Shown here: piece by piece, positions 1,820-59,194 of the stretch
Layout: each line of letters opens with the position of its first letter
How positions within the stretch are numbered: the first letter of the stretch is position 1
DNA from: Flaccisagitta enflata
Lineage: Eukaryota
NCBI GenBank assembly: GCA_965153355.1
Contig: OZ231126.1
Location: forward strand, 41,726,001 to 41,790,000
DNA: 64,000 nt
Reading direction: 5' to 3'
The notes under the pieces: generated by a model
Told to the model about the DNA's origin: nothing
The model's database searches: none
Seen by the model: only the letters and a program-made list of their open reading frames with translations
Position numbers and translations under genes: made by a program

Positions 1820-1820
1820 C

Positions 1821-1908
<88 letters not shown>

Positions 1909-1910: not shown

Positions 1911-2075
1911 TTAATGTGGCAGACTTAGTGGGATGTTGGTGAGTGCGTAAGTGAGGAATGCTGTTGAGCCTTCGTCGCCTCGTCGACGTCGTCGCAGCAT
2001 CGAAACCAACTTGACGATGCACATCCCGATCAAAATGCTGCCAACCATCAACCCCAATATCACCAAAAACGTAAC
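1911..2075 (-). CDS. Possible terminal exon encoding a single TM helix and short tail (VTFLVILGLMVGSILIGMCIVKLVSMLRRRRR...PLSLPH*)
   Basis: (CT)n polypyrimidine tract plus TTTTGGCAG acceptor at 2076-2078; hydrophobic stretch followed by a basic stop-transfer RRRRR; TAA at 1911-1913. Upstream exons not identified. Confidence 0.4.
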   Translation of the reverse strand, partial: VTFLVILGLMVGSILIGMCIVKLVSMLRRRRRGDEGSTAFLTYALTNIPLSLPH

Positions 2076-2080
2076 CTGCC

Positions 2081-2326
<246 letters not shown>

Positions 2327-3840: not shown

Positions 3841-4280
3841 CACTCTTTTTATTAAGTAAGGACGAAGTTTATAAGGACATGAGGCTGAAATTTTGCCAAA
3901 ATTTAAGGATATTTTAAGAACAACCCCAAGCCTTAATTTTATAAAGAAAAATTTGTTTCCTATTCCAAATTTCAATCATTGCTATGAAAATTGTTTTAAG
4001 AATATATCTTCAAAAAAAAAAATGATAATCATTTGTTTTTCTACATTGATATGTTTATTATACAAACAAATACTAATCAATTGTTGCAATATTTTGTATT
4101 TTCAAATCAATCGTTTATAATAAACTTAAGCTTTTACAATTTTTATTTCCTTTACAATGTAGAACTACAGAAAAAATATTAAAGACACATCAAGAACATT
4201 TCGGCCTCAAATCTGCAAAAATTAAAAGAACGTCCCAGCCTCAGAAAAATATTACTGGTCCTTAAGAACTGAAAAGAGTG
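3841..4280. mobile_element. Tc1/mariner-like MITE
   Basis: TA-CACTCTTTT...AAAAGAGTG-TA ends; termini resemble the element at 43684-43839. Confidence 0.6.
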
Positions 4281-4394
4281 TAATGAAAGAATGAATAAAG
4301 GCACGACTGAATGAAAATGAATGTGAAGTAACATGAATGAAGGAACACGTTGCAATCAACCGTTCTACGCAGTTTTAATGAATGTGTGACGGAA

Positions 4395-4459
<65 letters not shown>

Positions 4460-4766
4460 GACAGAGAGAGACAAAGAGAGACAAAGAGAGATAGAGAGAA
4501 AAAGAGAGATAGAGAGAAAAAGAGAGACAAAGAGAGAGAGAGAGAAGAATCAGAGTGAGAGAGAAAAAAAGAACAAAAATAGACATTCAAAAACACTTTA
4601 TTGGTTAACGGCTGTTACTACACCTGAGATTCATTCATGATGAGCTTTTTTTCAGATTGAACGTGGGATGCGTCGCTTCCCTCGGATAGTTGGCGAAAGG
4701 CAACGATACATCTTCGCCATGTTTTCGTATCATTTGATTGGGGATATTTACGATTGTTGTTGTTGT

Positions 4767-4859
<93 letters not shown>

Positions 4860-5547
4860 CGTTGTTGTTGTTGAATGAATTTATTTACGAATGTGGATGC
4901 TGCGGCGTAAATCAATGGGTAGGTTCACTTTATTTGTTCATTTGTGAATTGCGATCATGAAGAAAGATTTAACAACGCCGCAGTCGCTACCACCACCATC
5001 AAAAGATGCAAGAATATGGCGCCACCCCCGACACCCAACGGCGCTGGCGCTGGCTTTATCTTTTCTTTACGACACCACCTCGTTCGCCAATGGCGACGGA
5101 ATGAAACGTTTCCTGTTTTGCCGGCGCCTTCGTCCGTCTCTCGCGCGACAGACGCCGACTCGGGCACTGAAATAAAAATTACGAAACAGGGCTGAGTTAA
5201 TCTTGAACGGGCTGAGGCAGGGGGCAGGGGGCAGGGGCAACAGTAGTCGATTTTGAAACTGAGAACATTAAACACGCATGGACAAGGAAATGGTGTTCAC
5301 GGTAGATGAGGAGGTATGACTTATGCATGTATGAGAGTGGTCGGTGGTGGTATTTCTAGATGGTGAGAGAATTTACTGCACAGTTGGGACCAGGCTGTTG
5401 GTCGCACACGAGGGCAAAACAAAACGAAACATTATACTTAGCAGAGTTCTGAATTGGAAGGGGCTGGCGCACATGTATCTTCCTAAGCACCACCGCATAA
5501 ACTAACACACACACTCATACGCGCACACACACACTCACACACACGCG

Positions 5548-5655
<108 letters not shown>

Positions 5656-6205
5656 AAAAAAAACACACACATTCACAAAGCAAGGCCGTATACACGGCAG
5701 CATTAGTCGCGGACGGGTGGACAGGAGCGGAAAACCTCGAAAAACACTTTTGTGACGGACCGATGGACCGACGAACCGAAAAGTTGCTTATAGAGTCGCG
5801 TGTCCGCGACTTAAAATCCGATAATCAACACGAGTGAAAGAAGAGAAATGGCAAACAAATCTGCTATTCGACCACAGGGAAACAGAGGAAGAAAAAAAAC
5901 AACTATGCAAACAAAGGAGCAATCATTTTGACGAAGTAACAACTGTCACAGGTACGACCGACTGAACTGAATGTAAGCTTGATTTAATGATGAAAAAATA
6001 TTATAAAGCGCCCGATTATTTGTAGCGAAAAAGATAACATGGGGGTTACACGGCCACCCAAACCGCGTGCGGGTAGGCGGGGCAACGATTAATGATGGAA
6101 AGAAAAGGAGGTAACGTACAAGAGAGAAAGACAAAATAAAAGAGAGAAAATAAAAACTAGAAAGAAAGAACGAAGCTAGAAAAAGAAAGAAAGAAAGAAA
6201 GAAAA

Positions 6206-6284
<79 letters not shown>

Positions 6285-6313
6285 TGAAAGAAAGAAATCA
6301 GTAAGAAAGAAAT

Positions 6314-6389
<76 letters not shown>

Positions 6390-6392
6390 AAA

Positions 6393-6437
<45 letters not shown>

Positions 6438-6569
6438 ATAAAATACACGGTTACCCCAGTCGCTTGCGGGTGGGCAGGGGCAGTTTGTGAAATAGGCATA
6501 TCAAAAATCTCGACAGAGGCGGTGAATATGAATATGAATGAAGATCGAACAAACTCGTCCTCGTATCTC

Positions 6570-7646
6570 TACCAGTAATGGCGGCTGTCGCCGTGAGGAA
6601 AAAAGTCGTAAGCGTTGTTCACTTTTCACCAAGCTTTTGTTTTCAGTCATTGCAACTTTCTATTTGTTAGATCAAATCAAGAGCAATTGAATATACAGGC
6701 CCATAATAATATAATGAGAGGGGCAGCAAAATCGCTAGCAACCCTACCCACAGCTTAAATGGTCAATATTACAAGGACAACTGATGTACTGGCTAAAAGC
6801 ATATCCCAATACTATTCCCGCCATCGAGGTGTTTTTCAAATTTCCTCATAATTCTGAAGATATAGGTCAATAATCGGCTAAATCAATGCTTTAGAAAATG
6901 GCTAATTTTCACCCTAAAAGAGGCTGTATCTTGGAAACTAGTTTGAAATTAAAAAAACGGCGCTATGGCAGGAATTGGATTGGGACAAGTTGTTGGGCGC
7001 TACTTTTATTGTCCATGTAACCATTTGAGCCGCAGGTAGGGGTGCTAGCGATTTTGACTACCCCTCTCACTGTAATGTCATTGGTTCTGTAGTGGTTGCA
7101 CTGAAAATCAGAGAAAAATAGGACTGAGCCAAATGAGCTAGATGAGCTAAAATATTCAGAATCACTCAACTACACAACCAGTTATGCTTACTGAGATGGT
7201 TTTTTTGTATTTGCATGCTTAAATCAAAACATTTATCTATTTATCGGTTTTGAAATCAGAAAAAAAGAGCAAGCTAAAGCTAAAATGCTCAAAATCACCC
7301 TCACACATGAGCAGCTATGCTCATAAACATGTTCTTTTGTATTTGCATGCTTAACCAAACTTAGATACACTCCTTTATTGATCCTACACAAAATCATAAA
7401 AAATCTAAAAAAATTCAATTTGAATTTTTCGTAAATAAATCTTTAAAAATTCATAACGCGAAAAATATTTGTCCCAGAGACTTCTGTTTAGCGCCAAATG
7501 AAAGAGAATTATCAAATTTACTTACCCTATCAATTTCATCCAAGGGTGCAATCGCCCTAAGGAGTTCCTAAACTTTCGCATAAGAAAATGAAAACCCTGT
7601 TTCTCTCGTTTATGTCAAAAAGTCGAAGACTAACTTCGACTTTTTT
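6570..7646 (-). mobile_element. HINE-like element, family 3, with a nested MITE at about 6713-7072
   Basis: Terminal hairpin AAAAGTCGAAG-ACTAA-CTTCGACTTTT at one end and ACCAGTAATGGCGGCTGTCGCCG...AAAAAAGTCGTA at the other; homologous in inverted orientation to 60847-61669. Confidence 0.65.
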
Positions 7647-10420
7647 CCCGATGAGATGATTTGTCGGTCTGTCCGTCCGTCCGTCCGTCCGTCCGTCCGT
7701 AACGCCAATGCGAAAAACGCATTTCTCAGCTGTTTTTGGTCATGGCGAGATCGTATACTGAGTTAAACGATCAATACACGTGTTTTGCAGTTTGTCAGTC
7801 AGTTCGTCCATGCGTCAACCCATATGTCACACAGTATCAGCGCAAATTTCGCTCCACGTAAGGACACTGTCAGGACGCATCGTTGCCCGGTCGGCAAGCA
7901 TGAAATGAAAATCAGGCCAGAAAAAATGGAATAGAGAAAGATAACAAGTCCAAGTTATGGCCAATAAGCGCGCCTCGCTCGATTGAGAATTTGTGAATGA
8001 ACGTTTCGAATGAATGAATGAATAAATGAATGAATGAATAAACGAATGAATGAATAAACGAATGAATGAATGAATGAATGAATGAATGAATGAATGAATG
8101 AATGAATGAATGAATGAATGAATGAATGAATGAATGAATGAATGAATGAATGAATGAATAACAGAATGAAAATAAGTGTGGAAAGGCATGAGAGGTGACA
8201 GGAATGAAGAAAGACGACAGAATTGGCCGTTTTGAGTGTTTTAAACGTTTGCGTTACCGACAGACCAACAGAGCGACGGACAAGACCTCTTATACAAGTG
8301 CCAGGACGCACTTAAAAATAAGTTGAACATTTAACGAAATGGTGTTCTACCGAGAGAGCAATAATCCAGCGGTAGGGAAAGTATTTTACATATTCATTAT
8401 CTTTTTCTTTGCCTGCCGTTTGCTTTGCTTTTCTTCCCCGTTTTCTCCTTCTCTTTAGTCGCTTTTTAAGTGCGTCCTCGAACTTCTATAAGAGGTCATG
8501 TCCGTCGGTTGGTTGGTTGGTTGGTCTGTTGGTTGGTTGGTAACGCGATCGTTTGAAATGCGCAAAACGGCTGATTCTGACGTATTTCTTCATTCCTACC
8601 ACCTTTCATGCCTTAACACATTCATTCTAATTCATTCATTCATTTATGCATCAAAAACGTTCATTCACAAATTCTTAATCAAGCGAGGCGCACTTATTGG
8701 CTTTAACTTGGCCTTGTTAACTTAGAAATACTAAGCGATTCAATAAGAAGTTCAGCGCGGCCGTGGATATGTACGTAGGTCCGAAAGTAGGTCCTGAATC
8801 CGTAGGTAAGTCCGAATAGAAGTTTCTTGGGTGAGTATCAAATAGTTTGCCCAGTTTCAGCTCTCAGCTTTCAGTCGGTCAGTCGGTTGGTTTAGTCGGT
8901 TAGTCTGTCACGTTTCATATTTTTTTTAAACTTTTTTTGCCGTCTTTGGCCTCACTACTCCTGCCCAAGGGCTTTAGTGACCTTAAAGTTTGGGGTTTTT
9001 TCTATCGGCTAATTCTCCTTTTTAGTCGCGTGCAGTCGACTCTACAACCCACTCTGACCGTCTGTCGGTCCGTCCGTCGGTCCGTCCGTCGGTCCGTCTG
9101 TAACACTTTGCTTTTTATCGACATTTTACATCATTTTAAAACATTTTAAGTCATTTTAAGTTATTTAAAGTTAAATTAAGTCAATTTACATTTAGTCTCT
9201 TAGTCTCTTAGTCTTCTGGTCTTTTAGTCTTTTAGTCTTTTAGTCTTTTAGTCTTTTAGTCTTTTAGTCTTTTAGTCTTTTAGTCTTTTAGTCTTATAGT
9301 CTTTTAGTCTTTTAGTCTTTTAGTCTTTTAGTCGTTTAGTTTTTTAGTCTTTTAATCTTTTAGTCTTTTGGTCTCATGGTCTTAACAACCGTACGCGACC
9401 ACACTTACTTTGTTTAATTGTAAATCGCGAAGTAGTATTTCTTTTTGATGAAAATCCTTTAGTTGGAAATCTATCGATTTTAACTTTTAGATTGCTTGTC
9501 GCTATGACTAATTCTTATATGTAAGCTTTAAATCAAGGGATATCCATTTAAGGATGGATTTGAGCCCAGGATTTTACTTCGCGAATCAGTCGAGTGTGCG
9601 ACTGTAAGGTGTTGGCCTTGTTTCCATAAACTCTTGTCCATATACCCCTACCCACCCGCAATGGTACATCGTGTATCCAGCCTTGTTTTTTTTTTTCGGA
9701 TATATTCCTTCTAGTTGGCGTTGGGAAATGATTTTGTTGGCGCCACGAAGGAGAAAAAAAGGAAGGGATTCGTTTTCTGACGCAAAAAACGGATTCGTCG
9801 CAAACCACGCGTCGGAATTACGAACCTAACGTCCGACGTCGTGCGGGACGACAACGACGACGACAACGAGGATGACGACGATGAGGACGATGTGGGAGAC
9901 AACAATGATGGCGGTGACGACGATGATAACAACAATGAGGAGGACGACGACGTTTACTAAGGCGCAACGATGGGGATTATGATGATGATAATTATTAAAG
10001 ATGATGGCGACTACGAATAAACGACATTTCACATTTAAGTGAGATATCAATTATCTTTCATGCAAAAATATTATCAATAAAAATGAATCAACCTATTTTT
10101 AGTTTAGAATATCATCATTTAATCATATGAAAAATTGACCAAAAAATGTGTTGACTCATTGAATTCTATTTTCGTTTGCACTGTGACGTAAAATGATAAC
10201 AATTGTGACTGTGACTCTACGCCTTTCTGTGTTGGTCGATCCGTCCGTCCCTCTGTCGGGCTGTAACATCTGAAAGATTTATTGTAGGGAAAGGTTATTA
10301 TTGTAAGGTATGTAAGTGTAAAGTAATGTTGTACTCTAGTTTTGTAGTACCGAAGTACTGCCCCTGCCCAACCGTCCGTGACTTTTGCCATGTTTTGGGC
10401 TTGTATTTTTCTATTTTTTT

Positions 10421-11342
10421 CAGGCCTGTATATAATTGAGTTTCCCGGGGGGGGGGGAAATCAAAGGGTCTTGAGATGGGGAAGTAAATTAAAGAGGGCA
10501 AAAAGAGAAAAAAAGAAAAAAAGAAAATTTGGGGAAAAAAAACTTTTGACAGTGCCAAATCATAAAAACTAGTTAGTAAAACACAATTTAACACTATCTA
10601 AACCTTAACTACTATCTTGTTCAAAACAAGAGTCCGGTAGTTTTTGTCATATTTCATCCAAATGGTGAAGAAAACCCTAGGAAAACCGGTGACCGTTAGA
10701 AAGCTCTTCAAAAATGCGATCAAATGCCGCCAAGCAGAGCATTGTAGCTCAATTCGTTTGGATTTTAGAGCAAAAAGAGTAAAAGAGTTCACCTTAAACT
10801 ATGCTGATAAATTAGACAAGAATTTCTTTTCAAAATTCAGGCATGTATTTTTTATGTTTCTGCACTTATCAGTTACAGAAACATAGGAAAATCGGTGACC
10901 GATGTAAAGAGCTTCAACAGGGCTTTCAAATGCCGCCAAGCAGAGCTTACTAGCTCTAGCCGTTTAGATTTTACATCAAATTGAGTGCATACCTCTCAAA
11001 ACAAGAAAGTGGTCAAAATTGCTCCTGAAATTAATTGATAGGTAACACTGAAATAAGTTATTAAGCTCTCTGATAACATAGAAAAGGTTATATGAAACAC
11101 ATTGAATACCCAAAGATGCTTAAATAAACATTCATCACAAAAAATTAGAGTTTTCTATCAATCTGATACCAAATGGGGACTTAATGTCACCGCGCGGACT
11201 CTTGATTTGAACAAGATAGTACACTGTTTTATAGCTTCATGGGAAAAAAAATCATAAATTTTAAAACGCGACGCGGCGTGTCGCGGAGAAGAAAATCAAA
11301 GGCAGGGGGGAAAAAAGAGCGACTCAATTATATACACCCCTG
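10421..11342. mobile_element. hAT-like MITE inserted in a family-1 HINE
   Basis: TIRs CAGGCCTGTATATAATTGAG / CTCAATTATATACACCCCTG; 8-bp TSD ATTTTTTT on both sides; same family as 30149-31061. Confidence 0.7.
10612..11219. mobile_element. TA-flanked MITE nested inside the hAT-like MITE
   Basis: TIRs CTATCTTGTTCAAAACAAGAGTCCG / CGGACTCTTGATTTGAACAAGATAG; TA on both sides. Confidence 0.75.
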
Positions 11343-12650
11343 ATTTTTTTTTGGCAGGGGCAGTGCTTGGATTGTCTTATCAAGCATTTGTGCAGGGGCA
11401 TTGATGCGAAAACCGCCCGTGAATGCCAAAAAATCCAAGCGTTACATACGGAGGTTAAAGATTCACACGCACGCCGCTAGAAAGACTATATAAGTTAATC
11501 ACATTCACCCTTACCTTTTTCACCTAAATAGACTATTCTTCGAAGATCAGAAAAGAAAGAAGGGGCCTAATCAACAACTATTTTGCTTACGTTTTACCTT
11601 CGCACCAAGTTTTCATACTTTGACAATCACATTGAAGAGATTAGACCGATATAATTGGATAAGATTGATTAGAATAGTCGCAAAAAAGGGGGGCGGAGCA
11701 CACTATGCTATGTATAAAAGGTGAAAACTTTGCAGAGTGCAATTTATTTTTCGATGTACAAATCAATAAAACGTCATCACGTTCTGCCTGAAAGGAAAGG
11801 ATCATGAATATTTTGCGAAAGAAAAGACATTCACAAGACGCGTTGCCCCGTCGGCCCTTCGGTCCGTCGATCCGTTGTTCCATTGCACAAAGTTCTGTAC
11901 GCGGGTCACCTCAGGACATAAAAATTTACGCCGGTAATTTTGACCTATATCAAAGGCAGAAACAGGTACGGTTGCTTATACTGAGCAAGAAAATGCATGG
12001 TTTTACCTGCATCCTAGCTAATCCAAAGCCTCTTTTCTTCCCTTGAAGTCAACTACTTCGTCCAAATTCAAATGTGGAAAAAAAGGATTATGTCATTCCA
12101 TAATTTTTTCCATTTGATTCTGTTATAGACATGAACAAGGCCAAGTAGGCCAATAAGGTGCGACGTGTGGATCGTCGAACGATTGCGTTACCCGACAGAC
12201 CGACCAACCAACCAACCAACCAACGGACACAGCCAGTTATAGAGGTGCTTTGTCGCACCTAAAAATGATACCTAGAATAGGGGAGAGGACGCCAAATTTT
12301 TAGGAAAGCTTTAGGGTGGATTGATTACGACATGTGTAAAATTTGGTACACCTGCTTCCAGATTTGAAGGACTTATAAAAAAAAAAAAACCTTGAATTTC
12401 TAATCAAAGATTAAAAAAAATCTCGTCAATTTGAGGCCTCCAAAATGTTAAACCTACTGACTCCATGAGCAAAAAAATGTCCTTTTATGTCATTTTATGT
12501 GTGCATGGGGTGGGGGAAGGTATGGGCATATATGGATGGGGGTTGTTTGCCCCTACCAACACGTCCGCAACGATATTGTGACCCCGCGAAACTTGTTAAA
12601 AAGAAATTAAAATGATTTATTCACTAGTTTTGGTGGCTAACACCATGCAG

Positions 12651-12855
12651 AACAAGGCCGGATACACGGCTACCCCAGTCGCGTGCGGTGGGCAGGGGCT
12701 GTTTTTGAGGTCACTTGATCATTTTGGCAGGAGCAGTGAGGCCAAAGACCGCAAAAAAAAACAAAAAAAAGTAAAGTGTGACGGACCAACGGACCAACGG
12801 ACGGACCGACGGACCGACAAAGCGGGGTGTAGAGTCGCGTAGCACGCGACTAAAA
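12651..12855 (-). mobile_element. HINE/DINE-1-like element, family 1 (complete short copy)
   Basis: AACAAGGCCGGATACACGGC stem-loop end, subterminal AGTCGCGTGC, GACG/GACC microsatellite, and terminal hairpin AGTCGCGT-AGC-ACGCGACT-AAAA. Confidence 0.85.
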
Positions 12856-13140
12856 AACAGAGACAACCAGGCTTTTTGTCAGAATGACTGTTCTACACAA
12901 AGCCATTTTCAAAATTCTGGGGCGTGTTTTGAGAATCGCATTTTCACCCCGCACTAACTGAAAAAAAAAAAGACAACCCAGAAAGGATTCGAACCCTTGC
13001 TCACTCAGTGCTTTAACTGCTCAAAATTGAGTTACTTTCTAGAAGTAGCTATGGGCAAATACCAGTAATGGCGGCTATCACCGACCAGAAAAAAATTGTA
13101 TGTGGTGTTTTCTTGAAGACGACCCCGAGAGAGAGAGAGA

Positions 13141-13217
<77 letters not shown>

Positions 13218-13703
13218 ATGGTTACTCCCATTAATGAAAAAACAAGGCCAGATACAAGGTAAGTCAAATAGTGTGCTGGTGGATAAACTGACTGACCGAT
13301 GGAACGACCGACCAACTGGTAAGCATGCTCAAATCTGTATGATAACAAAACTAAGGATGAGTCTTTCCATTTTGAGACTCCACACCAAGTTTCAATATCT
13401 GAAATCATGCTTGTTTTTTTATTTTGATCAAAATTTCATTTGCATACAGAAATAAAAACAGATTCAAAAATGCATAACTGGTTAATACCGGTGAGCCAGA
13501 GGATGTTTTTCGAAATATCATGTTTATGGCAAACTAGTCAGTGAGGGTTCCTAAGACCCTCTTGCATTCATTTCAGTCTGGGTATAGTGATTTGTCCTGA
13601 TCTAGAAGGGGTACAATCAATCCCGCGGACAGACGCAGACGGACAGACGGACGGAAAGGACGGACCGACTTATCACTTTCGAGATTAGGTGCATGCATCT
13701 GGA

Positions 13704-13859
13704 AACAAGGCCGGATACACGGCCATCAGTTGCGGACGGGTGGGCAGGGGCAGAAATGCGCGTTTTCCCACTTTTCAACTCGATCACCACGGACCAACCA
13801 ACCGACCAACCAACGGACGGACAAAGCCTCTTATAGAGTTGCGTGTCCGCAACTAAAAA
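13704..13859 (-). mobile_element. HINE/DINE-1-like element, family 1 (AGTTGCGGAC subfamily)
   Basis: Same architecture with subterminal AGTTGCGGAC and terminal hairpin AGTTGCG-TGTC-CGCAACT; a sister copy lies at 23625-23786. Confidence 0.8.
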
Positions 13860-14077
13860 GTGAGCCTAATAGCAAAATGCGAACGCCATAGAAACCGAAA
13901 AAGGCTTAATTGTCCGATGACCTTTAAAAGCTGCCATTTGCGCTCGATCTCAATCGAATCTCCGATTTGCAGAATAATTTATGTCGCCAAAAATCCGCTC
14001 GCTCTTTTCTTCAATTTTCGCTCTCTTTCTGCCTTAATCATTCTCTGTCTCTGTCTCCGTGTCAATCTGTCTCTGTT

Positions 14078-14202
<125 letters not shown>

Positions 14203-15339
14203 TATTGCCGCTGTCTGTTAATAACATTAGATAAAATCAGATACCTTATGTATAAATGTATATGTTGCAGTATCGGGAACCCTGTCGATATTGTTTTAAA
14301 CGAATGTGCACCAAGCATTTTATTGATGAGGCAGATCCCTCCCGGAATGAATAGCACAGAAATTAAAGCACAGAAATAAACATACATCCATAAAAATGAA
14401 ATTTCGTTTCTACTTGATTCTGTATCTATTTCTATCTCAACCCTTGGGGGAGAGCAACATGACTGTACAGACAAACACATTAAATCACAAATGAACCCAT
14501 CGTCAACTTACGGTAGCCTTTAAGCAAAAGCCGGAACAAAATTTACTTTAAAATATTTACATGTATTCAAAAGTAACTTGAAAGAGAGAGCGACAATTCT
14601 CAAAACCGGTTTTTCAATTTTTTATACGGTTTTACTTTTTTCTTCCATGGTAGTAGATTCAATAGCAAATAGACTAAAAACTCAGGCACTCCTTTTCTTG
14701 ACGTTTTTCCGTCGAATACTTAATCGACCATTACCTATTTAAATTAAAGCCTTATTCTTCACAAACGAAATGAAGTCGTTTTTTTTCGGGGGGGGGGGGT
14801 ATATTGTTTTGTTTTACTTAACCACCAACCGACTGACTTATTAACGGACTGACGATGATGATTAAAGTTTCAATAGGTTACTAGATTGGTTGTCCGACTT
14901 AACGCATGACTGACCGACCGACGGACCGGTTGAGCGACCAACCATAATCAATTTGTGGAACAACAAACTAGACCAACCGCAAATGACGTAAAAGGAGCGG
15001 TTGAAAAGATCCCATCCGTTTAATTTAATTAAGCCAGTTTCAAAAAATATATACAGACAGATAATAAGATGAAATAAAACATAGAATGGATGAATCTAGA
15101 AAAGGGTTTGGCATTAACTTGGTGTCCTCGATCCCTCGAGGCCGTTTTCTCGTTTAACGGGAATCCCATTTTATTTAAAACTTATGAAATGACATCATTG
15201 ATCTGAAAAAGGTACCAAGAATCGACCTCACCAAAGAAACGGCAACGATAAGATAACCATTTTCCTCTCCTGTAATTTCTTTAAAAATTGAACTCTTACT
15301 ATTTGTCGTTGTTTTTTTCTAGGGAAATAAAAAATACTG

Positions 15340-29294: not shown

Positions 29295-34197
<4,903 letters not shown>

Positions 34198-37864: not shown

Positions 37865-38632
37865 AAAGGCGAGGGAAAACGAAAAAGAGACAGAGAGACA
37901 GATTAAATGACAAAAACAGGCATGCAGTCAACCAAACATCATGAGATGCACATAGAAGAACATGCACTGAAAAAGAGACTCCCATTTACGACTTTTTTCC
38001 GGTCGGCGAGAGCCGCCTTTATTGGTATTTTGTCGCGTGCTATGCGAGTCGACACCCCGCTTTCTCCGTCGGTCGGTCGGTTGTTCAGTCGGTTGGTCGG
38101 TCGGTTGGTCGGTTGGTCAATCTGTCTGTCACACTTACTTTTTTATGATTTTTATTCTTTGATTTCACTACTGCTCAAATGATCTAGTGACCTCAAATGC
38201 GGCGCCTGCTCGCCCGCACGCAACTGGGGTAGCCGTGTATCCTGCCTTGTTTCCATGTCATCTTGATGTATTTCATGAGGTCGATTATGAATGTTTGATT
38301 GACTTGATGAAAAAATGAATGAACGAATGAATGAATGAATGAACAAACGAATAAATGATTCAAAATGGATGTATGAATAAATGAATAGATGAACGAATGA
38401 TTGAACAAATGATTGAATAGAAGAAGGGACGCGATAGTTACTGAATTACTGAATTGATGAATGAATGAGTGAGTGAGTGAGTGAGTGAGTGAGTGAGTGA
38501 GTGAGTGAGTGAGTGAGTGAGTGAGTGAGTGCTTGAGTGAGTCAGTGAATGAATGAATGAATGAATGAATAAATGAAGGAATGAAACAATGAATTAGTAA
38601 ATTTTTAATTTCTATTACTGAATGTGAAACAG

Positions 38633-39215
38633 TTTATTCGAGTTTCACGGGGTCGGCTTACGTTTGGATCCATCGGACGCTGATTTCGTGGATGTGATTC
38701 ACACGGACGGCGAAAGCATTTGGTGGGGAATCATCGGCGGCACTGCCAACGGCTACGGCATGGCGCAACCGTGCGGCCACAAGGACTTCTACCCCAATGG
38801 AGGCGCGTCGCAGCCAGGATGCAACGCTGAACGGAAACTACTCTTGCAGCAAATGCGGCGGATGCGGCAGGGTGCCGGTGCTGCAGAGAACCCACCAGTG
38901 TCGTCGTCGTCGTCGTCTTCAACGTCATCGTCGTCGTCTTCAACTTCATCAGCCAGGCGGATGATGGAAAGCTGCGATCACGATCGATCTCAAGAACTAT
39001 TCTTGGCGACCATCTTGGAGACCGGATGTCGATTCGTGGGTCGTCGTTGTAAAGACTGGGAACATTTCAAAGGCGGAAACTGCGACGAGAATGAAGAGGA
39101 AGTGATGGGGATCGACGCTTCGCCGCCAGACAGTCCCGAGACGAGGATGAAAGTGTACCTGAAGACGGGGGCCGAAAACCCCTTTTGCCTCGGCGATGAG
39201 GGCGCGAGAGGATGA
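38633..39215 (+). CDS. Duplicate of lipase terminal exon 5 (open frame; one extra Ser, Y>C change)
   Basis: Same acceptor and stop as 33618-34197; no duplicated upstream exons. Confidence 0.6.
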
Positions 39216-43839: not shown

Positions 43840-44244
43840 TATATCGGGCGATGTCGGAAACTTAAAATCTTTTTTTTTTTAAGAGAAAAGAAAACAACGA
43901 ATAAAAATTTAAAGTTTCCATGGTGTTGTACAAAGAACTTTAAATACAAATGAAGCTTTTGCTTTTTGTTTATTCACGAGAAATGAGAAATGCTTACTCC
44001 ATCAGACTAATACTACGCTACTGAAAATGCGGAGAAAGAAAAAAACAAAAGGGACGTCGCGGTCGATTTTTGGTCGTGTGCACAAGCGAGACTCAACTGT
44101 GTACGTTGATAGGTCGGTCGTCCATCGGTTGGTCAGCCAGTCTGTCCATCCGTCCATCCATCCATTCATTCATCCATCCATCTATCCATACATCCATCCC
44201 CATACATCCGTTTGTCATTTCTTTTTTGTGTGAAGCGACCATCT

Positions 44245-47200
44245 TTTATTGACGAAATTTTTGAGGTAATGACATTACGCATACCCTGTGTCTCTTTTGA
44301 AAACAACAAAAAAGACTTGATTATACTGACTGTTTACAGACAGCCTGGGAACGGCAATCTGGACAAATTTCTTGACTCTATCCAAAGATGGCTGACAAAA
44401 TATGATAAAAGAACTAATGAAATTATTATAATGGGAGACATGAATCTAGACCTTTTAAAATATGACTCTCACAAACCGACGTCAGACTATCTTGATGTGA
44501 TGATGTCTCATTCTCTGCTGCCAATGATAAATAGACCGACTAGAATTAAACACTCTAGTGCAAGCCTCATAGACCACATATTTTACAAATCTGTTGCAAA
44601 GAGAACAGGCATCTTAACAAGCGAAATTGCGGGATCACATGGCTTTACAGATCACTACCCTGTTTTTTGTATCCTTAGCATCAACAACGACAAATCCAGA
44701 CCTAAAAAAACTATACACAAAAATTACTTTACAACTGATGGACATGAAAAAAGAAGAAAAGCATTAAGAGATCAATGTTGGGACGACTTCTTTGCTGAGA
44801 ATGACCCTGATATTGCTTACCAACTGTTTCAAGACAAATACTGTTCATTTTACAACAACTCTCTGACAACAAAAACTTTTGAAGTTAAATGGGATCATTA
44901 CCCAAGGGAACCTTGGATGACAACTGAAATAATAAGAAAAATGAAAAGACGAGATCGACTATCAAGGCAACCTGGAAGAAGAGATGACTACAAACTTGTA
45001 AGAAACGAGATTGTTGCAAACTGTCGTAAAGCTGAACATGATTACTACAAGAAAAAAGTATCAGAGAATTGGAACAATATAAAGGAACAATGGAACATCA
45101 TACGAAGGGCAATGGGTAAAGTTAATGACAAATCAGGCTTTCCATCTGCCTTCTTTCACAATGATACCTGGATGACAGACAAACAACAAATATCGAACAA
45201 CATGAATGCATATTACTCTGCAGTTGGGCCAGATACTAATAAAAGTGTGGGTGAATCCAAAAAGGATCCCTTATTCTTCTTATCAAACAAGGCCAACACC
45301 TATAAGTCGCGTGCGAGACTTCTTTACATAATCGCCTAATTATATAAGTACATTATTTCCTGTGATGACAATAAAGACTATAATTACCTGCTGACCTTTA
45401 ATTACCTATAATTACCTATAATTACCTATAATTATTACCCATAATCAAATAATGACCTATAAGTACCTATAAAGACCTACGATTACATATAGACCTATGA
45501 TTACATATGGACCAATGATTACCAATAATAATGTATGATTACCCATAATTACCCACAAAAACTTATAATAACATAATGACCTATAATTACCTATAATGAC
45601 CTATGATTACCTATAATTACCTATAATTACTCATAATTAAATAATGACCTACAAATACCTAAAAAGACCTATGATTACCTATGATTACCCATACCTACCT
45701 TTACAAACATAATGACCTATAATGACCTATGATTACCTATAATTACCTATAATTGGAAAATGACCTATAATTACCTATAATTACCTATGATTAGCTAAAA
45801 TTACCAATAATTGAATAATGACCTATAATTACCTATAATTGTTAATTGATGTATAATTACCTATAATGACCTATAATACCCTATAATTACCTATAATTAC
45901 ATAATGACCTGTAATTACCTTTAATAACCTTTGATTACCAACAATTACCTTTGATTTCATAATGACCTATTATTACCTATAACTATCTATAATGACCTAT
46001 AATTACCTATAATTACATAATGACCTAGAATTACCTATAATGATCTATTATAAACCTTTTATAAGCTATAATTTTCTAAAATTACATAATGACCTAAAAT
46101 TACCAATAATGACCTATAATTGCATTATGACCTGTAATGACCTATAATTACCTCTTATGACCTATAATTACCTATAATTACATAATGACCTATAATTACC
46201 TGTAATTACCTATAATTACCTATAATTACCTATTATGTCCTATAATTACCTATATTTACCTATAATTACCTATAATTACCTATGATTACATACTGACATA
46301 TTATTACCAATAATGACCTATAATTGCATAATAACCTATAATTACCTTTAATGACCTATAATTACCTATAATTACATAATGACCTATAATTACCTACAAT
46401 GACCTATGATTACCTATAATGACCTATGATTACCCAAAATTTCATAATGACCTATAATTACCTATAATTAAATAAATAAAAAGTGAAATCACTACATTGA
46501 CTAAAATGACTAAAATGACTGAAAATGACTTAGAATGACTTAGAATGACTAAAAATGACCTAAGATGACTTAGAATGACGTATAATGACATAAAGTGACT
46601 TAAAATGACTTAAAATGACTTAAAATGACTTAAAATGACTTAAAATAACATCAAATGATGAAAAGGATTATAGTGACTAAAATGACAATAATGACTTAAA
46701 ATGACTTGGAATGAATTAAAATGCCTTAAAATCACTTGAAATGACTTAGAATCACTTGAAATGACTTAAAATAACTTGAAATGACTTAGCATGACTGAAA
46801 ATTATGAAAAGGACTATATTGAATGAAATGACAATAATGACTTAGAATAACTTAAAATGACTTAAAATGACTAAGAATGACTTAGAATGACTTAGAATAA
46901 CTTAGAATGACTTAGAATGACTAAAAATGACTTAAGGAAATAAAATTGATAAAAAAAGTAAAGTGTGACCAACCAACCGACCGACCGACCGACCAACTGA
47001 CCGACGGACAAAGCGGGTTGTAGAGTCGCGTGCACGCGACTAAAAATAAAGAACGTGTAACCCATCAATTATTGACTTGTCGTTTTAATAGGCAGGATGT
47101 CATGAACGCTTGCCGGCTTCTTCATCCAAAGACCAGTTGTGATGCCTATGGGCTTTCTCAAAAGGTTATTCTTGGTGATATGGACATTCTGGCACCAATG

Positions 47201-48681
47201 TTTGTGCATCTGATCAACTGCTCTCTATCATCTGGTAAGTGTCCTGATATGAGTAAAATAGCAAGAGTTATTCCCGTCTACAAGAACAAGGGAGAAAACT
47301 ACCTTTTTACCAATTATAGGCCTATATCTTTGCTCCCAATTTTTTCTAAAATTATTGAGAAACTTGTATACAATAAGATATTCCATTTTCTGGTGCGGTA
47401 CGGAATACTGTTTAAATCACAATATGGGTTTAGAAAGGGGCACAACACCACACATGCCACTTTAGATTTTCTCAAAACCGTAGAAAATGCAATGAAAGAA
47501 AATGAACTCTCAATAGGCGTTTTTTGTGATCTCTCAAAAGCTTTTGATACTCTAGACCATGAAATTTTACTCATGAAGCTTGATCACTATGGTATAAGAG
47601 GAAAATGGTTATCCTGGATACGATCTTACCTCACAAATAGGCAGCAATATGTCGATATGGATGGTACCAAAAGCTCGTTGGCCCCAATTCTATTTGGTGT
47701 ACCACAGGGAAGCATCCTAGGCCCACTATTGTTTTTGATATACATTAATGACCTACCCGCAGCTCTGGACAAAGTGATTCCTGTTATGTTTGCTGATGAC
47801 ACTAACCTTGTCATAAGAGGAAAAAATATCAATGAACTTGTGACAACCTTGAATGCTGAACTTGACAGTTTAAGTGACTACTTCAAGGCCAATAAGCTTA
47901 AACTGAACGTGGATAAAACTAAACTTGTCTGCTTTAGAAAAAAAGGATATGATCTGTCTGAGGGTATTCCTGATGTAATTCTTGATGGCTCAATCTTAGA
48001 ATGTGAAAAAGACACAACATTTCTAGGAATAACTCTAGATGAGCATCTCACATGGGAAAATCACTGTAACAAAGTCGCAAACAAAATGGCTAAAAACACA
48101 GGTGTGCTTAATCGAGTCAAAAAAAGCCTTCCTACATGTTCACTTCTCACTATTTATAACTCTTTGATCTTTTCTCACCTTTGCTATGGACTTGAAGTAT
48201 GGGGAGCAACCTATGAAAAAAACTTAAAAAGAATAGCTGGCATACAAAAAAAGCAATACGAATAATATCTAAATCACATTGGCTTGCACACAGTGAACCC
48301 CGCATGAAAAAACTGAAATTACTAAAACTTCCTGAACAGCACAGACACCAATGTCTTAGCCTCATGTACAACATGACAAAAGGAATAGGGCCTGACATCT
48401 ACAGCTATCAACAGCATCTCTACACAGAAATCTCAAATCATAATCTTAGGTCAGCAAGCCAACATCCAAATAATGTTAAACTTCCGCCTCTTTCCTCAAT
48501 TGGGAACAAACGCTCTTTCCCTTGTCTTGCACCATCATTCTGGAATGACTTACCTGATAATCTTAAACAAATAGACTCGAAAAAACGTTTTAAAAAAGAA
48601 ACTAAGGAACTCTTGCTACAAAACTACCTTGAAATATGTGTATGTACTAACCCTCTCTGCTCTGACAGGAAATTTCATTGA
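44245..48681 (+). mobile_element. 5'-truncated non-LTR retrotransposon (CR1/L2 group, Crack/Daphne-like) ORF2: partial APE endonuclease plus reverse transcriptase; interrupted and frameshifted
   Basis: APE motifs VYRQP, MGDMNLD, PTR..., LIDHIF, TDHYP; RT motifs NYRPISLL, QYGFR, DLSKAFD, GVPQGSILGPLLF, FADDT. Insertion at 45286-47041 and a 1-nt loss in the A-run at ~48246-48252. Confidence 0.95.
45286..47041 (-). mobile_element. Family-1 HINE-like element carrying two 10-bp satellite arrays, inserted in the LINE ORF
   Basis: AACAAGGCC...AGTCGCGTGC at one end and AGTCGCGTGCACGCGACT hairpin at the other; (ATTACCTATA)n at ~45380-46470 and (AATGACTTAR)n at ~46495-46935; removing it restores the LINE frame (S-K-N-K-E) with no TSD. 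Confidence 0.9.
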
Positions 48682-48979
48682 TTTCCTTTCCCGCTTGTCA
48701 ATACATTCCCTCTCTCGTCTCTTGTCCTTCTTGTTCTGTCCCATCATGCTATGTCCGATCCGAACTTGCGTGCCTCTCTCTTTCTGTCTGTCGACTGACC
48801 CTGAGTCTTGCCTTCTTCACAATGATTGACCAACCCCCTCACCCTTTTTTTCACTTCTTAGCCTCAACAGTCAATGCTATAGGCATTCTCCAAACCTGCC
48901 ATGGGATAGGGTGGCTTGTTAATTCGTCAACTATTATTTTAAAATAGATGGTGAAATGCTACAATTCTACATCTGCTTT

Positions 48980-49322
48980 GGCACTGGAACTTGCCAGTGC
49001 CGTTTACTAACTTTTAAACTTATTAATATCAAAGATAAATCATCAATAATTACCTTTGCGTTGCACTAGACCTAGCTAGTGTCGCTTAATTACCTTTAAC
49101 ATTACCATTCAAGATAAACCTCTGAAAAGTCATTTTGCGATGCACTGGGACTCGCCAGTGTCGTTTACTAATTCAAAACTTTCAGCTGACAAAGAAATAC
49201 CATTAACAAGTCATTACGCGATGCACTGGGTATAGCCAGTGTCGTTCACTTACTCCTAAAAACAGCCATCAATGATAAATGTTAATAAGTAATCCCGCAA
49301 GAGCACTGTAACTAGGCAGTGT
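48980..49322 (+). repeat. Five ~80-bp diverged tandem units, each with a conserved GCACTRK-N6-SYAGTGY hairpin
   Basis: Hairpins start at 48981, 49063, 49142, 49223 and 49303. Confidence 0.85.
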
Positions 49323-51613
49323 TGTACACCCCTTTCACAAAAAACAATCAATAAGCAATTGCAACTAACTCAATCTGCTTCAATACGCTTCTTCCTTCAT
49401 CTCTTATTTTAACTCTATCTTTAAATCCACTTGCAAATTTAAGATACTTTAGCTTATCTATTGTATGATATCTTAGCTAAAAGCCTTTATCAATGAAAAA
49501 GAAAAAGATTGATTTATGCAATTTCAAATTCAGACTGACTGACCAAGCGTGGGTGCTAATTAGGGCACTCGTAAACTAAGTAAATACAAAACCCTACTTC
49601 TGGCTTGAGCGTGCATTTAAGTTATCTTTGAATAAGAGACAAAGACTTCTTTATCTTTGTGGTGGATTGGTTTGTATTTGTAAATTTGTGAGTCCATTCC
49701 TCCGGGTCCATTCCCCATGTTTCTTTTAAATAGAGTTTGGTCACCTAAGATCACGAATTCTCTTATCAATGCACGCTCATGCCCTTGTGGTGGGGCATTG
49801 CCGCTCAGGTCTCCTCCAGGCTGCTCTGTCTGCCTGTAGCAGTCTTGTCGTCCTTGCCCCCATTTACAATACCAAGTTCCTGTAAAATAACAAACCTCTC
49901 TCCTCCCTTCTCCTAGATTTGCTCTCCCAACAGCCTAGTTCACTTCCCGACGCCGTTCGTGATATCCGTGTTCCCGTGCCTGCAACTCGCCCACGCCTAC
50001 AACTCGCATCAGGACAACCTGTAGGCTGTTGGGAGCTGGATGATGGGACGGAGGAGCTTTTACAAGAAAATCTGATATTGCCTTTCATTGGCTTAGTCCA
50101 CAATTTGAACCGAACTGTTTCTTATCTGGTTTGCAGCTTTCAAGCTTCCAACAACAAAAGTGGATTTCCCGTTCGTTTTATAATCACGCTGTTACTGTAA
50201 TGTTGCCTTTATCCATTCTGTTTTAACAACTCTATATAGGATTTTTGGCTTACTTGCAATCCATCTGGAAAGATAACTGATATCAATTGTACTCGCGTAG
50301 ACTAGATACCCAGAGAGATACATGTATTTCATTTCAAACCACTTAATAGGCGCATACACGCCACTCTATAATTAAACTCACTGTTGGTCGGTTTGCTGGT
50401 CTTTTTGTCCGTCCATCCGTTTATCCATCAAAAGCATTTGTGTTATTGTTGTGAGATGCCTTTTGTTATTTCTTCGAGATTTCGAGATTTCTTTATAAAG
50501 TATTTGGCTGTGTGGGCAAAGAGGTGAATGGTACAAGGGGTAACAAGGCCGTTTACACCCCCCCCCCCCCCGAGCGGAAAACAGAAATGTGACGTGACGT
50601 GACCGACACGGCAGATTCTACAGTCGCGTGTCCGCGACAAAAAAAGGCATTTGGGAAAAGACGGCGTTGCAAATTTTCCGGAAAAAATTGTTTGTCACAA
50701 ACTGAAGGACAAACAGCGCGGTATCGAGTCGCACGCGCAAGACATTAAAACAAGGCCAGTTACACGTACACGGCTGCACTAGTCGCGTGCGGCAGGGCAG
50801 GGGCAGTGACACAGATGGTCACTGTGGCATTTGGGCAGGAGCTCAAAAACGCCAAAAAAGTAAAAAGGGGACAAACCGACCAATGGACGGACATAGCGGG
50901 GTGTTGATTCATGTAGCACGCGACTAAAACAAGAGATGATACCCGATAGAATGAGGAGACCATGGATGAAGCGGATGTTATAATGGGGGTAACTAAGGGA
51001 CTTAAACAGACCTATCGCGTGCCCTATTCTTTTCTACATCGACGAATTATTTTAATGAGTTTTTTTTTAATTTCACTTAAATTTTGATGCCGCGGGGTTA
51101 TCAACATTCGATAAAAGGGGCAAAAACCTTTATCACAATCTTGAATAAATAGTTTCCTTTTTTCCCCGCAACGAATATCAGTTGCATCTGTCAACAAATG
51201 ATAGTGTTCCCGCATCTTTACAAGTCCGTTTGTCATTGTTCTTGTTTTATGTCACGAACACGCTACACTGCACTAAATCTTGCAAGGCCTTGCTGTGTCA
51301 GTCCGTCTGTTTTTCTATCTGTCTGTCCTTCCATAACATTTTTGAATTGTGAGCGGTTTTTAGATGCGTCCGTCAGGAACGCATCTCTATAAGAGGGTCT
51401 GTCCGTCCATCCGTCCGTCCGTCCGTCCGACCGTCCGTCGGTCCGTCCGTCCGTCGGTATGTCCATTACGCAAGTGCAAAAACCGCGTTTCTTGGCTGTT
51501 TTAGGCCACGGTGAGATCCTATAATGGGTGCGTTTCTACTCAAAGCCACAATCGCGTTTTTGATGTAGGTTTTAAAATTCGCGATTTTATCACCCTCCTC
51601 CTGAAAAAATACT

Positions 51614-56977: not shown

Positions 56978-57454
56978 CGTTGGTCTGTCTGTGGACACGA
57001 GTTGAAAGGTGCAAAAATGAGCGTTTTATATGGTTTTTGTTTATGTGTGGGGGGCATGGGATACGGACGGGGGTTGGATGCCCCTGCTTACCGGTCCGCA
57101 ACGATATTGTGACCCCGTATCCCTTGTTTCTCATTACTCACAATCCGCCAGTCAACGCCGACAAAATATGCATGTTCAACTTATTATCAATATCAATATG
57201 TGACATTGCCCACAATTCGCCGACAAAGTTCTCTTCACAATTTGGATGAGCATCCCATAATCACCCATTATCCCAGTCTTTTGTATTTTGTCTTTTGTCT
57301 TTTGTCTTTTGTCTTTTGTCTTTTGTCTTTTGTCTTTTGTCTTTTGTCTTTTGTCTTTTGTCTTCGGTCTTTGGTCTTTGGTCTTTTGTCTTTGGTCTTC
57401 TGCCTCAATATTAGCCTTTTGTTTCGTGTTTTTTGCCATTTTTTGTTTGTCTTT

Positions 57455-57668
57455 TTTAGTCGCGTGCTACGCGACTCTACACCCCGCTTTGTCCGTCTGC
57501 CCGTCGGTTGGTCCGTCCGTCCGTCCATCCGTCCATCCGTCACACTTTGCTTTTTTTGGGTTTTTGCGGTCTTTGGCCTCACTGCTCCTACCCAAATGAT
57601 CAAGTGATCTCAAATACAGCCCCTGCCCACCCGCACGCGACTGGGGTAGCCGTGTATCTGGCCTTGTT
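57455..57668 (+). mobile_element. HINE/DINE-1-like element, family 1 (complete copy)
   Basis: TTT-AGTCGCGT-GCT-ACGCGACT hairpin, CCGT microsatellite, subterminal GCACGCGACT, 3' GGCCTTGTT. Confidence 0.85.
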
Positions 57669-57839: not shown

Positions 57840-59194
57840 CTAAACTTCTTCCACGCGTTTGATTCGCGATTTGGCTCCGCTGCCTTTCGAAATCGCCGGC
57901 GAAGCTTTCGGCGGTGTAGTCGACATCGCCGTCACCGACTCCGTCTTTGAGCCCCTGCGTCCCATAGACGCAGTGCTTGAACGTCGAGTTCCTCGATTAT
58001 TCTCCAACTCCTCGTCCACGTCCTTCAGGGGAATCTCTTCGTTCACGTCGTCGTCGCTTTTCGACTTGCCACCCATCTTTCTCTTGATAGCCTGGACGCA
58101 GGCCATTTGCCGCACCGAATTCATCACCAACTCCACGATGAAATTTCCCTCTTCCTCTTCTTCCTCTTCCTCTTCTTCGTCCCCTTCTTCCCACGGTTTT
58201 TTCTCCACAATTGGCACCGGCTTGACGCGGATCGGGATTCCCAATTCTTTTCTGGAAAGGGACGTAATGAATTGGAGACGTAATGAACCAGTGACATAAT
58301 GGCATAGTGACGTAATGAAAAGTGACTCAATGACATGACATGACATAATGACTCAATTACAAAACATCCTAGATTGGCTCCATTCCAGGGTTGTCCACAC
58401 ATTTTCTTGCTGCTTGTCAGATTCTATCCTTTTATCAATCCCGCCGTCCAGAAGACATAGGCTTCACGTGTCTTGGTTAATCATCCAGCCTCCTAGACCT
58501 ACGTCACTTAACTTAGATAAAACAATCCAAATCGCCAAAGCAAATCCTAGAGTGTTAATCAGTATCAATCAAGGATTTTTCTTGCCTAGTCCAGGCCCTA
58601 TATGCCCTAATTTCAGTTTTTGACCAAATCTTATGCCTAACACAAGCGGAAATTTACCATCGAGTTATTAGGATATTCAACCTGATTTTGGCGTCGAGTT
58701 CCTCATCCGTCGCTGCCCACTCTGCAGTTGGATACGCAATTTGCTTCAGCCTGAGATAAACAATAAGTTGCAATGAAAAGAATTGATGACAAATATAAAA
58801 ATACTTTCAGTTTTGTTAAATCACTGGTTCCCTTTTATCATTCATATTTCATCCATTCCTTCTACTCCTCGACCTCTTTCCCTCTCTGACTGTATTTCTC
58901 TGTCGTTGACTCTGTGTCTGTCTGTGTCTGTCCGCCTCTGTCTCACTGCTTCTTTCCGTTTTGTATTTTTAGTCGCGTGCTACGCGACTCTACAACCCGC
59001 TTTGTCGGTCCGTCGGTCCGTCGGTCCGTCCGTCTGTCCGTCCGTCTGTCCGTCCGTCACACTTTACTTTTTTTGGGGTTTTGCGGTCTTTGGCCTCACT
59101 GCTCCTGCCCAAATGATGGAGTGGCCTTAAATATGTCCCCTGCCCACCCGCACGCGACTTCGGTAGCCGTGTATCCGGCCTTGTTTTTCCATCT

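Follow-up and report, generated by a model that had tools for sequence, protein, structure and literature searches.

A candidate array of five sense-strand stem-loops in the 3' UTR of a repeated LINE family from Flaccisagitta enflata

Introduction

To our knowledge, the way in which a LINE protein chooses its own RNA is understood for few elements, and in these the choice is made through one terminal stem-loop. In PMC4176376, the proteins of L2-clade LINEs are described as binding a cognate stem-loop that consists of an upper and a lower stem and whose loop is read specifically, and the recognition stem-loop of the stringent type is placed in the terminal tail. The tails of UnaL2, ZfL2-1 and ZfL2-2 (L2 clade) are single and terminal, lie by terminal short repeats, are shared with partner SINEs, and are bound by the cognate ORF2 protein; in mechanism, this stem-loop is the nearest precedent for the array described below. 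Minisatellites internal to transposable elements (TEs) have also been described (PMC6947457): these are head-to-tail units in the UTR of the element. They usually vary in number and are not known to contain a helix whose pairing is preserved through its changes.

The locus that we describe here involves both of these known kinds of feature, structured cis-elements and tandem repeats of LINE 3' UTRs. In the window (the whole stretch of DNA that was analysed, 64 kb long), five hairpins follow one another downstream of the ORF2 stop codon of a LINE copy. They resemble the tails of UnaL2, ZfL2-1 and ZfL2-2 in being sense stem-loops of a LINE 3' UTR, with two stems and a loop that appears to matter; here the sense-RNA stem-loop is a prediction, with all five hairpins present in the + strand's centroid structure and pairing in 35/35 stem cells. 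The array differs from those tails in having five copies with a period of ~80 nt, located ~1.06 kb upstream of where the 3' end of the element is placed: the array ends at 49322, and the multi-copy stretch continues to about 50413-50443. Since the stringent tail is single and terminal, whereas the array is five-fold and internal, we filed the array as something that works like a protein-docking stem-loop, and not as a member of the tail class. A sequence-only reading of this DNA had brought the hairpins together with the template recognition of CR1/L2-type LINEs; given the ~1.06 kb between the array and the inferred 3' end, this link is weak.

Like TE-internal minisatellites, the array is made of head-to-tail units, five in number and 79-82 nt long, inside a LINE 3' UTR. 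Unlike what is usual for them, the number of units seems fixed as far as the listed contig joints (15 of 28) show, and identity reaches 86% in the helices but 49% elsewhere.

The array also recalls a cellular system in its layout. The transferrin receptor 1 mRNA carries, in its 3' UTR, five spaced IRE hairpins, whose loops are hexaloops and whose stems are bulged on the 5' side, in an AU-rich setting, where the docking of protein determines the fate of the mRNA. PMC4931119 deals with these IREs. The analogy is one of layout only, with no relation in sequence or motif; an IRE as such, which has a CAGUGN hexaloop and a bulged C five pairs below it, was rejected, the loops not being CAGUGN and no Rfam IRE match appearing at E values up to 10. 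A CRISPR array was rejected as well, on account of the eukaryotic LINE context (RT and endonuclease), the homology of the "spacers" and the non-identity of the repeats. The sequence-only reading had already called the CRISPR likeness superficial for the reason that the linkers are homologous, and they do align to one another.

The host LINE copy

Judged from its sequence, the carrier of the array is a LINE copy that has lost its 5' part and is broken; it has an endonuclease and an RT domain and occupies about 44217-50413 of the window. The best full-length homologues of its ORF2 are proteins of ~1050 aa from metagenome assemblies, of which the one labelled P0003 is the closest. The copy begins within the endonuclease part of ORF2 (44217..45282, + strand), where residues 159-504 of P0003 align at 44245-45282 (tblastn) and Pfam reports Exo_endo_phos_2 and Exo_endo_phos; the ORF at 44113-45339 accordingly has an AP-type endonuclease domain (Pfam). 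The left limit of the copy is a probable one, set from the microsatellite at its flank and from a shared 9-mer. ORF2 is then split by an insertion of 1.76 kb (45283..47041, no strand assigned), such that the match to P0003 breaks off with residue 504 at 45282 and is taken up again with residue 506 at 47042. Most of the insertion consists of two 10-bp tandem arrays (Tandem Repeats Finder, TRF), with a (GACC)n run in addition, and its end of ~45 nt recurs in the window, where 47000-47055 has 13 other matches. The RT domain and the C-terminal part of ORF2 extend from 47042 to the stop at 48681 (+ strand; Pfam RVT_1, E=1e-33; 81% identity to P0003 over the RT). A frame break is found where the ORFs 47024-48265 and 48217-48681 overlap: by tblastn, residues 506-909 of P0003 lie at 47042-48253 and residues 893-1051 at 48202-48678. 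The mapping of P0003 thus indicates that the copy was damaged in three ways, by 5' truncation, by the 1.76-kb insertion and by the frame break, and it is dead. The close family, comprising P0003 and others with 59-81% identity, is known as proteins only. We take the element to be "CR1/L2-like", a tentative label that follows from the domain order and from a C-terminal motif of the WN.LP type.

Directly past the stop lies a CT-rich segment of 162 nt (48684..48845, + strand), which is absent from most other copies according to a joint 48683>48846 found in 4/4 sequencing runs and a roughly tenfold fall in depth in the bin 48680-48805. The rest of the 3' UTR (48846..50413, + strand) is multi-copy, with summed depth in the thousands over 48806-50443 and a drop thereafter. 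A degenerate (GGTC/GTCC/CATC)n run at 50386..50430 (+ strand) marks the inferred 3' end of the LINE, as judged from the sequence itself and the depth drop after 50443, and a like (GGTC/GTCC/CATC)n microsatellite is present at the 5' flank (44110-44216). Two strings are common to both flanks, TCCGTCCATCC (44149/50408) and CATCCGTTT (44205/50414); they may represent a target-site duplication or plain microsatellite repeats. These shared strings, the 5' truncation and the fall in depth past 50443 are what led us to place the copy at about 44217-50413. The 3' UTR would then be ~1.7 kb long (about 1.73), with the array in its first third and ~1.06 kb short of the inferred 3' end. In the final 146 nt up to this end, folding is no better than in shuffled sequences (z=+0.51), and no canonical tail stem-loop was recognised there. 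The window as a whole is crowded with nested repeats.

Anatomy of the array

The sequence-only reading had placed the array downstream of the LINE RT ORF, which is where we find it: ORF2 stops at 48681, and the first hairpin of the window copy starts 300 nt past this stop. The five palindromes of 20 nt were re-read from the sequence, and their sequences, starts and spacing all agree with that reading. On the + strand of the 64-kb window, the hairpins start at 48981, 49063, 49142, 49223 and 49303, i.e. at spacings of 82/79/81/80. A stem of 7 bp and a loop of 6 nt are constant over the five, again as previously described, and RNAfold can extend hairpin 1 to 8 bp.

All five hairpins are given here on the + strand. 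Hairpin 1 (48981..49000; GCACTGG-aacttg-CCAGTGC), the one with the possible eighth pair, has a predicted energy of -15.9 kcal/mol. Hairpin 2 (49063..49082; -11.9 kcal/mol) has A-U at pair 6 and a lower helix GCG/CGC. The lower helix reads GCG/CGU both in hairpin 3 (49142..49161; -12.7 kcal/mol), whose loop position 49153 is T in other copies, and in hairpin 4 (49223..49242; -12.8 kcal/mol). Hairpin 5 (49303..49322) has U-G at pair 7, and its energy is -10.5 kcal/mol on the + strand versus -5.9 on the - strand. The lower helix, 3 bp long (GCG/CGY), is set off from the upper stem by a bulge of 2-3 nt on the 5' side. RNAfold predicts it in units 2-4; in unit 5, the upper stem is lengthened by one A-U pair instead. 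The loops of units 1-5 are AACUUG, ACCUAG, GACUCG, GUAUAG and AACUAG, with U4 (T4 in the DNA) and G6 in 5/5 units and C3 in 4/5, and CACT/AGTG forms an invariant palindromic core of the five hairpins.

Based on repeat families and on the alignment of the five units, the unit boundaries on the + strand were set at 48950-49031, 49032-49110, 49111-49191, 49192-49271 and 49272-49353. The repeat search grouped five direct copies, 63-79% identical to unit 1, into one family and gave a second family that corresponds to the 5' side of units 2-4. Tandem Repeats Finder with standard penalties did not call the array, because the units are too diverged. We also searched both strands of the 64-kb window with the pattern GCACTGGN6CCAGTGY, allowing up to 2 mismatches. 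The eight matches obtained are the five sites, three of which are also read on the - strand; dinucleotide shuffles give an expectation of 0.18 matches, and 0/100 shuffles reach eight. A string resembling (A/T)GATAA is seen at the start of units 2, 3 and 5.

Helix conservation and strand bias

The alignment of the five units has 83 columns, and all its rows are paralogous units of one dead copy. The upper stem is paired in 35/35 cells. Four of its seven pairs are invariant, one (pair 1, with G-U in units 2-5 against G-C in unit 1) varies on one side, and two change on both sides. The compensatory swap that the sequence-only reading had reported for unit 2 is seen at pair 6, as G-C to A-U. That reading had put down the other stem changes to wobbles of the + strand, and this too matches the alignment, with pair 7 of unit 5 going from G-C to U-G and the G-U at pair 1 of units 2-5. 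When the lower helix is included, 49/50 cells are paired and 3/10 pairs show double changes; the third of these, a G-C to A-U change in unit 5's lower helix, is alignment-dependent. Unit 5, which is the most diverged unit and lies at the edge of the array, accounts for two of the three.

Column shuffles reached the observed pairing in 13/500 cases for the upper stem and in 8/500 with the lower helix, margins that are modest and inflated by the kinship of the rows. Sliding the 3' partner by 1-3 columns left 11-63% of cells paired. Region by region, the pairwise identity falls from 85.7% (upper stem) through 75% (lower helix) and 60% (loop) to 48.8% over all non-helix columns, so the linkers are mutually homologous and much more diverged than the upper stem, as had been claimed; the conserved bases extend slightly past the helices. 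In a crude simulation, in which 9 random substitutions were placed in the 100 helix cells of five ideal units, at most one broken pair was left in 4e-4 of 200,000 trials.

The two strands behave differently. The fold of the whole array has z=-3.2 on the + strand, with 0/100 shuffles equal to it and all five hairpins in the centroid, versus z=-1.47 with 8/100 shuffles equal on the - strand. Unit by unit, the + strand gives the more stable fold (-10.5 to -15.9 kcal/mol, versus -5.9 to -15.1), and the G-U pairs of the + strand are A-C mismatches on the - strand. The + strand is the sense strand of the LINE, and both the wobbles and the predicted folding energies favour it. Selection on an RNA structure of the sense transcript had been proposed from the sequence; of this proposal, the conservation of the helices, the pairing-preserving changes and the strand bias stand, all of them drawn from five paralogous units, and selection itself is kept as a candidate interpretation. 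The uses which that reading suggested for the structure (ORF2p binding, localisation or processing) are conjectures.

The array in other copies of the element

Logan contigs from four public runs were aligned to 47042-50800 at 80% likeness; these contigs are short, and their depth is not copy number. Of 12 public runs listed, 0 are recorded as RNA. In run X1, the summed depth is 3734-14327 per bin over the ORF, 490 in 48680-48805 and 4166-7210 over 48806-49309, the array included, with 5954-7210 over 48932-49309. It stays in the thousands to the bin 50318-50443 and then falls to 331. The low bins (48680-48805 and 50444-50569) were interpreted together with the joint and the flanking depth, and not as proof of absence. 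The joint 48683>48846 connects the end of the ORF to the UTR in 4/4 runs, so that most copies pass from the stop directly to 48846, and the array there begins ~135 nt past the stop.

A contig of 320 nt and depth 1196 aligns to 48845-49162 at ~88% identity (36 differing letters, 4 gaps) and has units 1-3 in register; another of 191 nt and depth 159 lies on 49072-49262 with 8 other letters, and a contig of depth 49 bridges 49302-49579. The 32 contig pieces listed form an overlapping series that begins at the ORF end and reaches 50333, with one gap at 49262-49302, which no listed piece crosses. The array is covered at a depth like that of the ORF, and its unit-specific sequences keep their register; it is therefore part of the repeated LINE and not private to this locus, in agreement with what the sequence-only reading had assumed. 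Since the units are 63-79% alike, whereas the contigs are about 88-96% like the window, the divergence of the units is older than the spread of the family.

No joint falls inside the array (48981-49322) among the 15 listed of 28, and these give no sign of variation in unit number. In 48950-49353, the differences from other copies that have the best support are five substitutions (49121, 49153, 49175, 49203, 49221) and three indels (49112, 49121, 49279). None of these eight lies in a helix, and one (49153) is in the loop of unit 3; the full set of differences has 778 further substitutions and 54 further indels. Eight uniformly placed variants would spare 100 of ~374 positions with a chance of ~8%, so the pattern is suggestive only.

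Distant relatives, databases and literature

Scans of contigs with RT alignment yielded at least 80 metagenome loci (572 pattern matches), 64 loci from prokaryote genomes and one viral locus. These loci, at least 145, are all distant LINEs whose best substantial matches are at most 51% identical; the close family (59-81% identical) is not among the fetched loci. A regular expression for CACT..N6..AGTG hairpins matched in 2/144 loci, each time a lone unrelated palindrome, and a pattern made of the 3' arm and its flank had 0 matches in viral contigs. A covariance model (R1) was built from the five 39-nt cores. Run on the 64-kb window, both strands and with filters off, R1 found only the five units, at 43.5-55.5 bits, the next best hit having 8.3 bits; the SINE-like repeats of this window are without the motif (R1, 64-kb window only). 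Against the 145 fetched distant loci, its best hit had E=0.32.

Forty distant relatives offer 300 nt or more past the stop, of which up to 1500 nt was scanned; none has a comparable spaced hairpin array there, which argues that the feature is specific to the family and not a requirement of the clade. The scan brought up repeated hairpins in only two loci: L120 has a run of perfect 20-nt palindromes 1.4 kb past the stop, tight and without spacers, and L137 an (AT)n run. In L093, a 20-bp satellite lies beyond the end of the LINE. All three were rejected as counterparts of the array.

Rfam gave no meaningful match at E values up to 10; the best one (E 0.23) was SNORA50 on the - strand, with 20.6 bits against a gathering score of 90. 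ARAGORN predicted 0 genes in 48600-50700. In the literature covered, which lies outside subscription journals and Repbase entries, we did not find a spaced hairpin array reported in a LINE 3' UTR.

A candidate protein-binding module and the alternatives

The reading that we favour, with a probability of roughly 0.5, is that the array is a selected, reiterated protein-binding module of the sense RNA in the LINE 3' UTR, a candidate function that the helix conservation and strand bias point to. A module of ~80 nt would have been reiterated five-fold and fixed in the proximal 3' UTR of a LINE family that is highly repeated in its host, a marine animal. Each module of the sense RNA would form a small bipartite stem-loop, composed of a lower helix (units 2-4), a bulge, a 7-bp upper helix and a hexaloop; selection would have kept the helices while the lineage was active, and the AU-rich linkers would have drifted. 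The likeliest function would be that of five equivalent putative docking sites for an RNA-binding protein specific for structure and loop. The element's own protein is one candidate binder, a host export or stability factor another, and the platform would raise the local concentration of this protein on the LINE RNA; its effect may lie in RNP nucleation or cis-preference, in export or in stability. In vivo, the RNA would be expected to fold as predicted and to be bound by one of these candidates. Being ~1.06 kb from the inferred 3' end, the array is probably not the priming site of reverse transcription.

A more specific version is put forward tentatively, as something we consider possible but would not presume: a previously undescribed cis-acting RNA element, i.e. 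a fixed array of five covarying, bipartite stem-loops of the proximal 3' UTR that is apart from the priming tail and may, as a multivalent platform, assist packaging, export, stability or the nucleation of RNPs. Such a platform would resemble in layout the transferrin receptor's five IREs or else the packaging stem-loops that RNA viruses carry in dispersed form. If true, a selected internal stem-loop array would add a second, multivalent layer to LINE RNA recognition or to the control of RNA fate, and the array offers a compact testable element, a 39-nt core present five times. If alignments of many copies lack a pairing constraint, the array would be an ordinary TE-internal minisatellite, as five paralogous units can mimic covariation.

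This minisatellite would be neutral, with its palindromic core kept at the DNA level through template switching in inverted repeats, through gene conversion between units, or through hairpin-driven duplication upon stalling of the RT or polymerase. We consider it unlikely, although it is the alternative that survives best. Tandem arrays after ORF2 were found by TRF in other fetched LINE loci, past the stop as here, and TE-internal repeats are described as seeding tandem DNA (PMC6947457). Template switching reportedly generates hairpins and maintains them, with changes that look compensatory (PMC8794818, PMC5453318), and the G-C to A-T change of unit 2 is a perfect mirror change of the sort that it would make. 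The products of template switching are Watson-Crick complements, however, and neither the U-G of unit 5 nor the G-U pairs present only on the + strand are of this kind. The units are also old (63-79% identity) and seemingly fixed in number among copies, unlike those of an unstable minisatellite, and it would be unusual for gene conversion to be confined to ~20-26 nt in every one of five units.

Somewhat less probable again is a cis-regulatory array acting at the DNA level (an enhancer, an internal or antisense promoter, or an insulator), in which the 20-bp palindrome would be the putative site of a dimeric DNA-binding protein, present five times with AT-rich spacers in between. Arrays of reiterated protein sites are known in retroelement UTRs, as with Su(Hw) in gypsy, and this speaks for such a function. 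So do the palindromic nature of the invariant CACT/AGTG core, the conservation slightly past the stem, and the (A/T)GATAA-like string of units 2, 3 and 5. A dimer site, on the other hand, needs no mirrored compensation, and unit 2 has one. The 6-nt spacer is asymmetric, with T4 and G6 in 5/5 units, and is better fitted to a recognised RNA loop, and the strand asymmetry of the pairing would be meaningless for duplex DNA.

It is very improbable that the hairpins are duplicated RT-recognition tails of the stringent type, offering alternative or redundant sites of target-primed reverse transcription. The architecture with endonuclease and RT is present, upper and lower stems occur as in the ZfL2 tails (PMC4176376), and a multimeric tail could in principle boost the capture of ORF2p. 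Yet the multi-copy stretch continues for ~1.06 kb past the array, to a microsatellite-like end near 50386-50430, and since the copy is 5'-truncated, its 3' end should be the true one; moreover, R1 does not find the motif near this inferred 3' end or in the SINE-like repeats of the window.

Least probable of all, and hardly to be expected, is an array foreign to the LINE, which would derive from some other mobile element or from a satellite and would have been captured by this one copy or lie beside it. In its favour, nested repeats fill the window, the copy already holds the 1.76-kb insertion, and the continuity of the 3' UTR is read from summed contig depth and a chain of short contigs; against it, the ORF end is joined to 48846 in 4/4 runs, contigs of high depth then cover units 1-3, and any capture would have preceded the spread of the family.

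Apart from the LINE and its array, exons of the pancreatic-lipase family are found within the same window.

Hairpin loops of the array and palindromes at distant loci

Three of the five hexaloops in the tandem array downstream of the LINE ORF2 (loops within 48988-49316) include four nucleotides that are complementary to themselves; these read CUAG in units 2 and 5 and UAUA in unit 4. Loops of this kind could in principle allow kissing contacts between RNAs. Since the units of the array share a common descent, the recurrence of these tetranucleotides may mean nothing.

Among the 145 distant LINE loci retrieved by reverse transcriptase (RT) alignment, two LINE RT genes with 48-51% identity to the query were located in megabase contigs labelled as bacterial MAGs (Stappiaceae and Paracoccaceae). 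The first (L093) spans positions 1-8941 of a 2.24-Mb contig, with the LINE at the extreme contig end and adjoining a 20-bp satellite, and the second (L120) spans positions 2013759-2024710 of a 2.07-Mb contig. It seems likely that these LINEs reflect chimeric joins or mis-binned host DNA. L120 also carries, at 7778-8003 of the locus and 1.4 kb past the LINE ORF2 stop, perfect palindromes of 20 nt (AATTGGAGATATCTCCAATT; a mirror G/C variant is among them) that are packed tightly at a period of 22 nt. This run is not comparable with the spaced array of five hairpins found in the window.

Insertions and repeats around the LINE copy

The ORF2 of the LINE copy is interrupted by an insertion (45283-47041) composed nearly entirely of two tandem arrays with 10-bp units, (ACCTATAATT)n at 45394-46470 and (TGACTTAAAA)n at 46498-46935. 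After both arrays comes a (GACC)n run (46967-47009), and the insertion closes with an end of ~45 nt, which has 13 further occurrences within the window and matches part of a repeat at 50869-50936. Arrays of (AATGACTTAA)n, found in the window at 34296, 35852, 39314 and 40870, resemble the 10-bp arrays of the insertion.

Immediately 3' of the ORF2 stop lies a CT-rich segment of 162 nt (48684-48845), which the contigs show to be missing from most other copies. All four runs contained the joint 48683>48846, and contig depth over the segment was approximately tenfold lower. The segment is either a subfamily marker or a later insertion.

A degenerate (GGTC/GTCC/CATC)n microsatellite was found on both flanks of the LINE copy (44110-44216 and 50386-50430), and the two flanks have 9-11-mers in common. 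This could reflect insertion of the LINE into a microsatellite of this kind, or else a LINE 3' tail of the same type that primed on a matching target. Throughout the window, repeats often adjoin (GACC/GTCC)n runs.

The short repeat at 50601-50936 is extremely abundant (summed contig depth of ~150,000 in X1, one of the four public runs compared) and is SINE- or MITE-like. In other copies, the contig comparison placed (GACC)n ahead of its left edge. Partial copies occur elsewhere in the window, at 12663-12863, 57450-57668 and 58967-59187.

Lipase ORFs

Two ORFs (33613-34197 and 38628-39215) matched the pancreatic-lipase family (PF00151) almost identically, with E ~3e-27, and their presence identifies the host as an animal. 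They lie ~5.0 kb apart, and the adjoining microsatellites recur at the same offset; the pair has the look of lipase exons duplicated in tandem as part of a segmental duplication.
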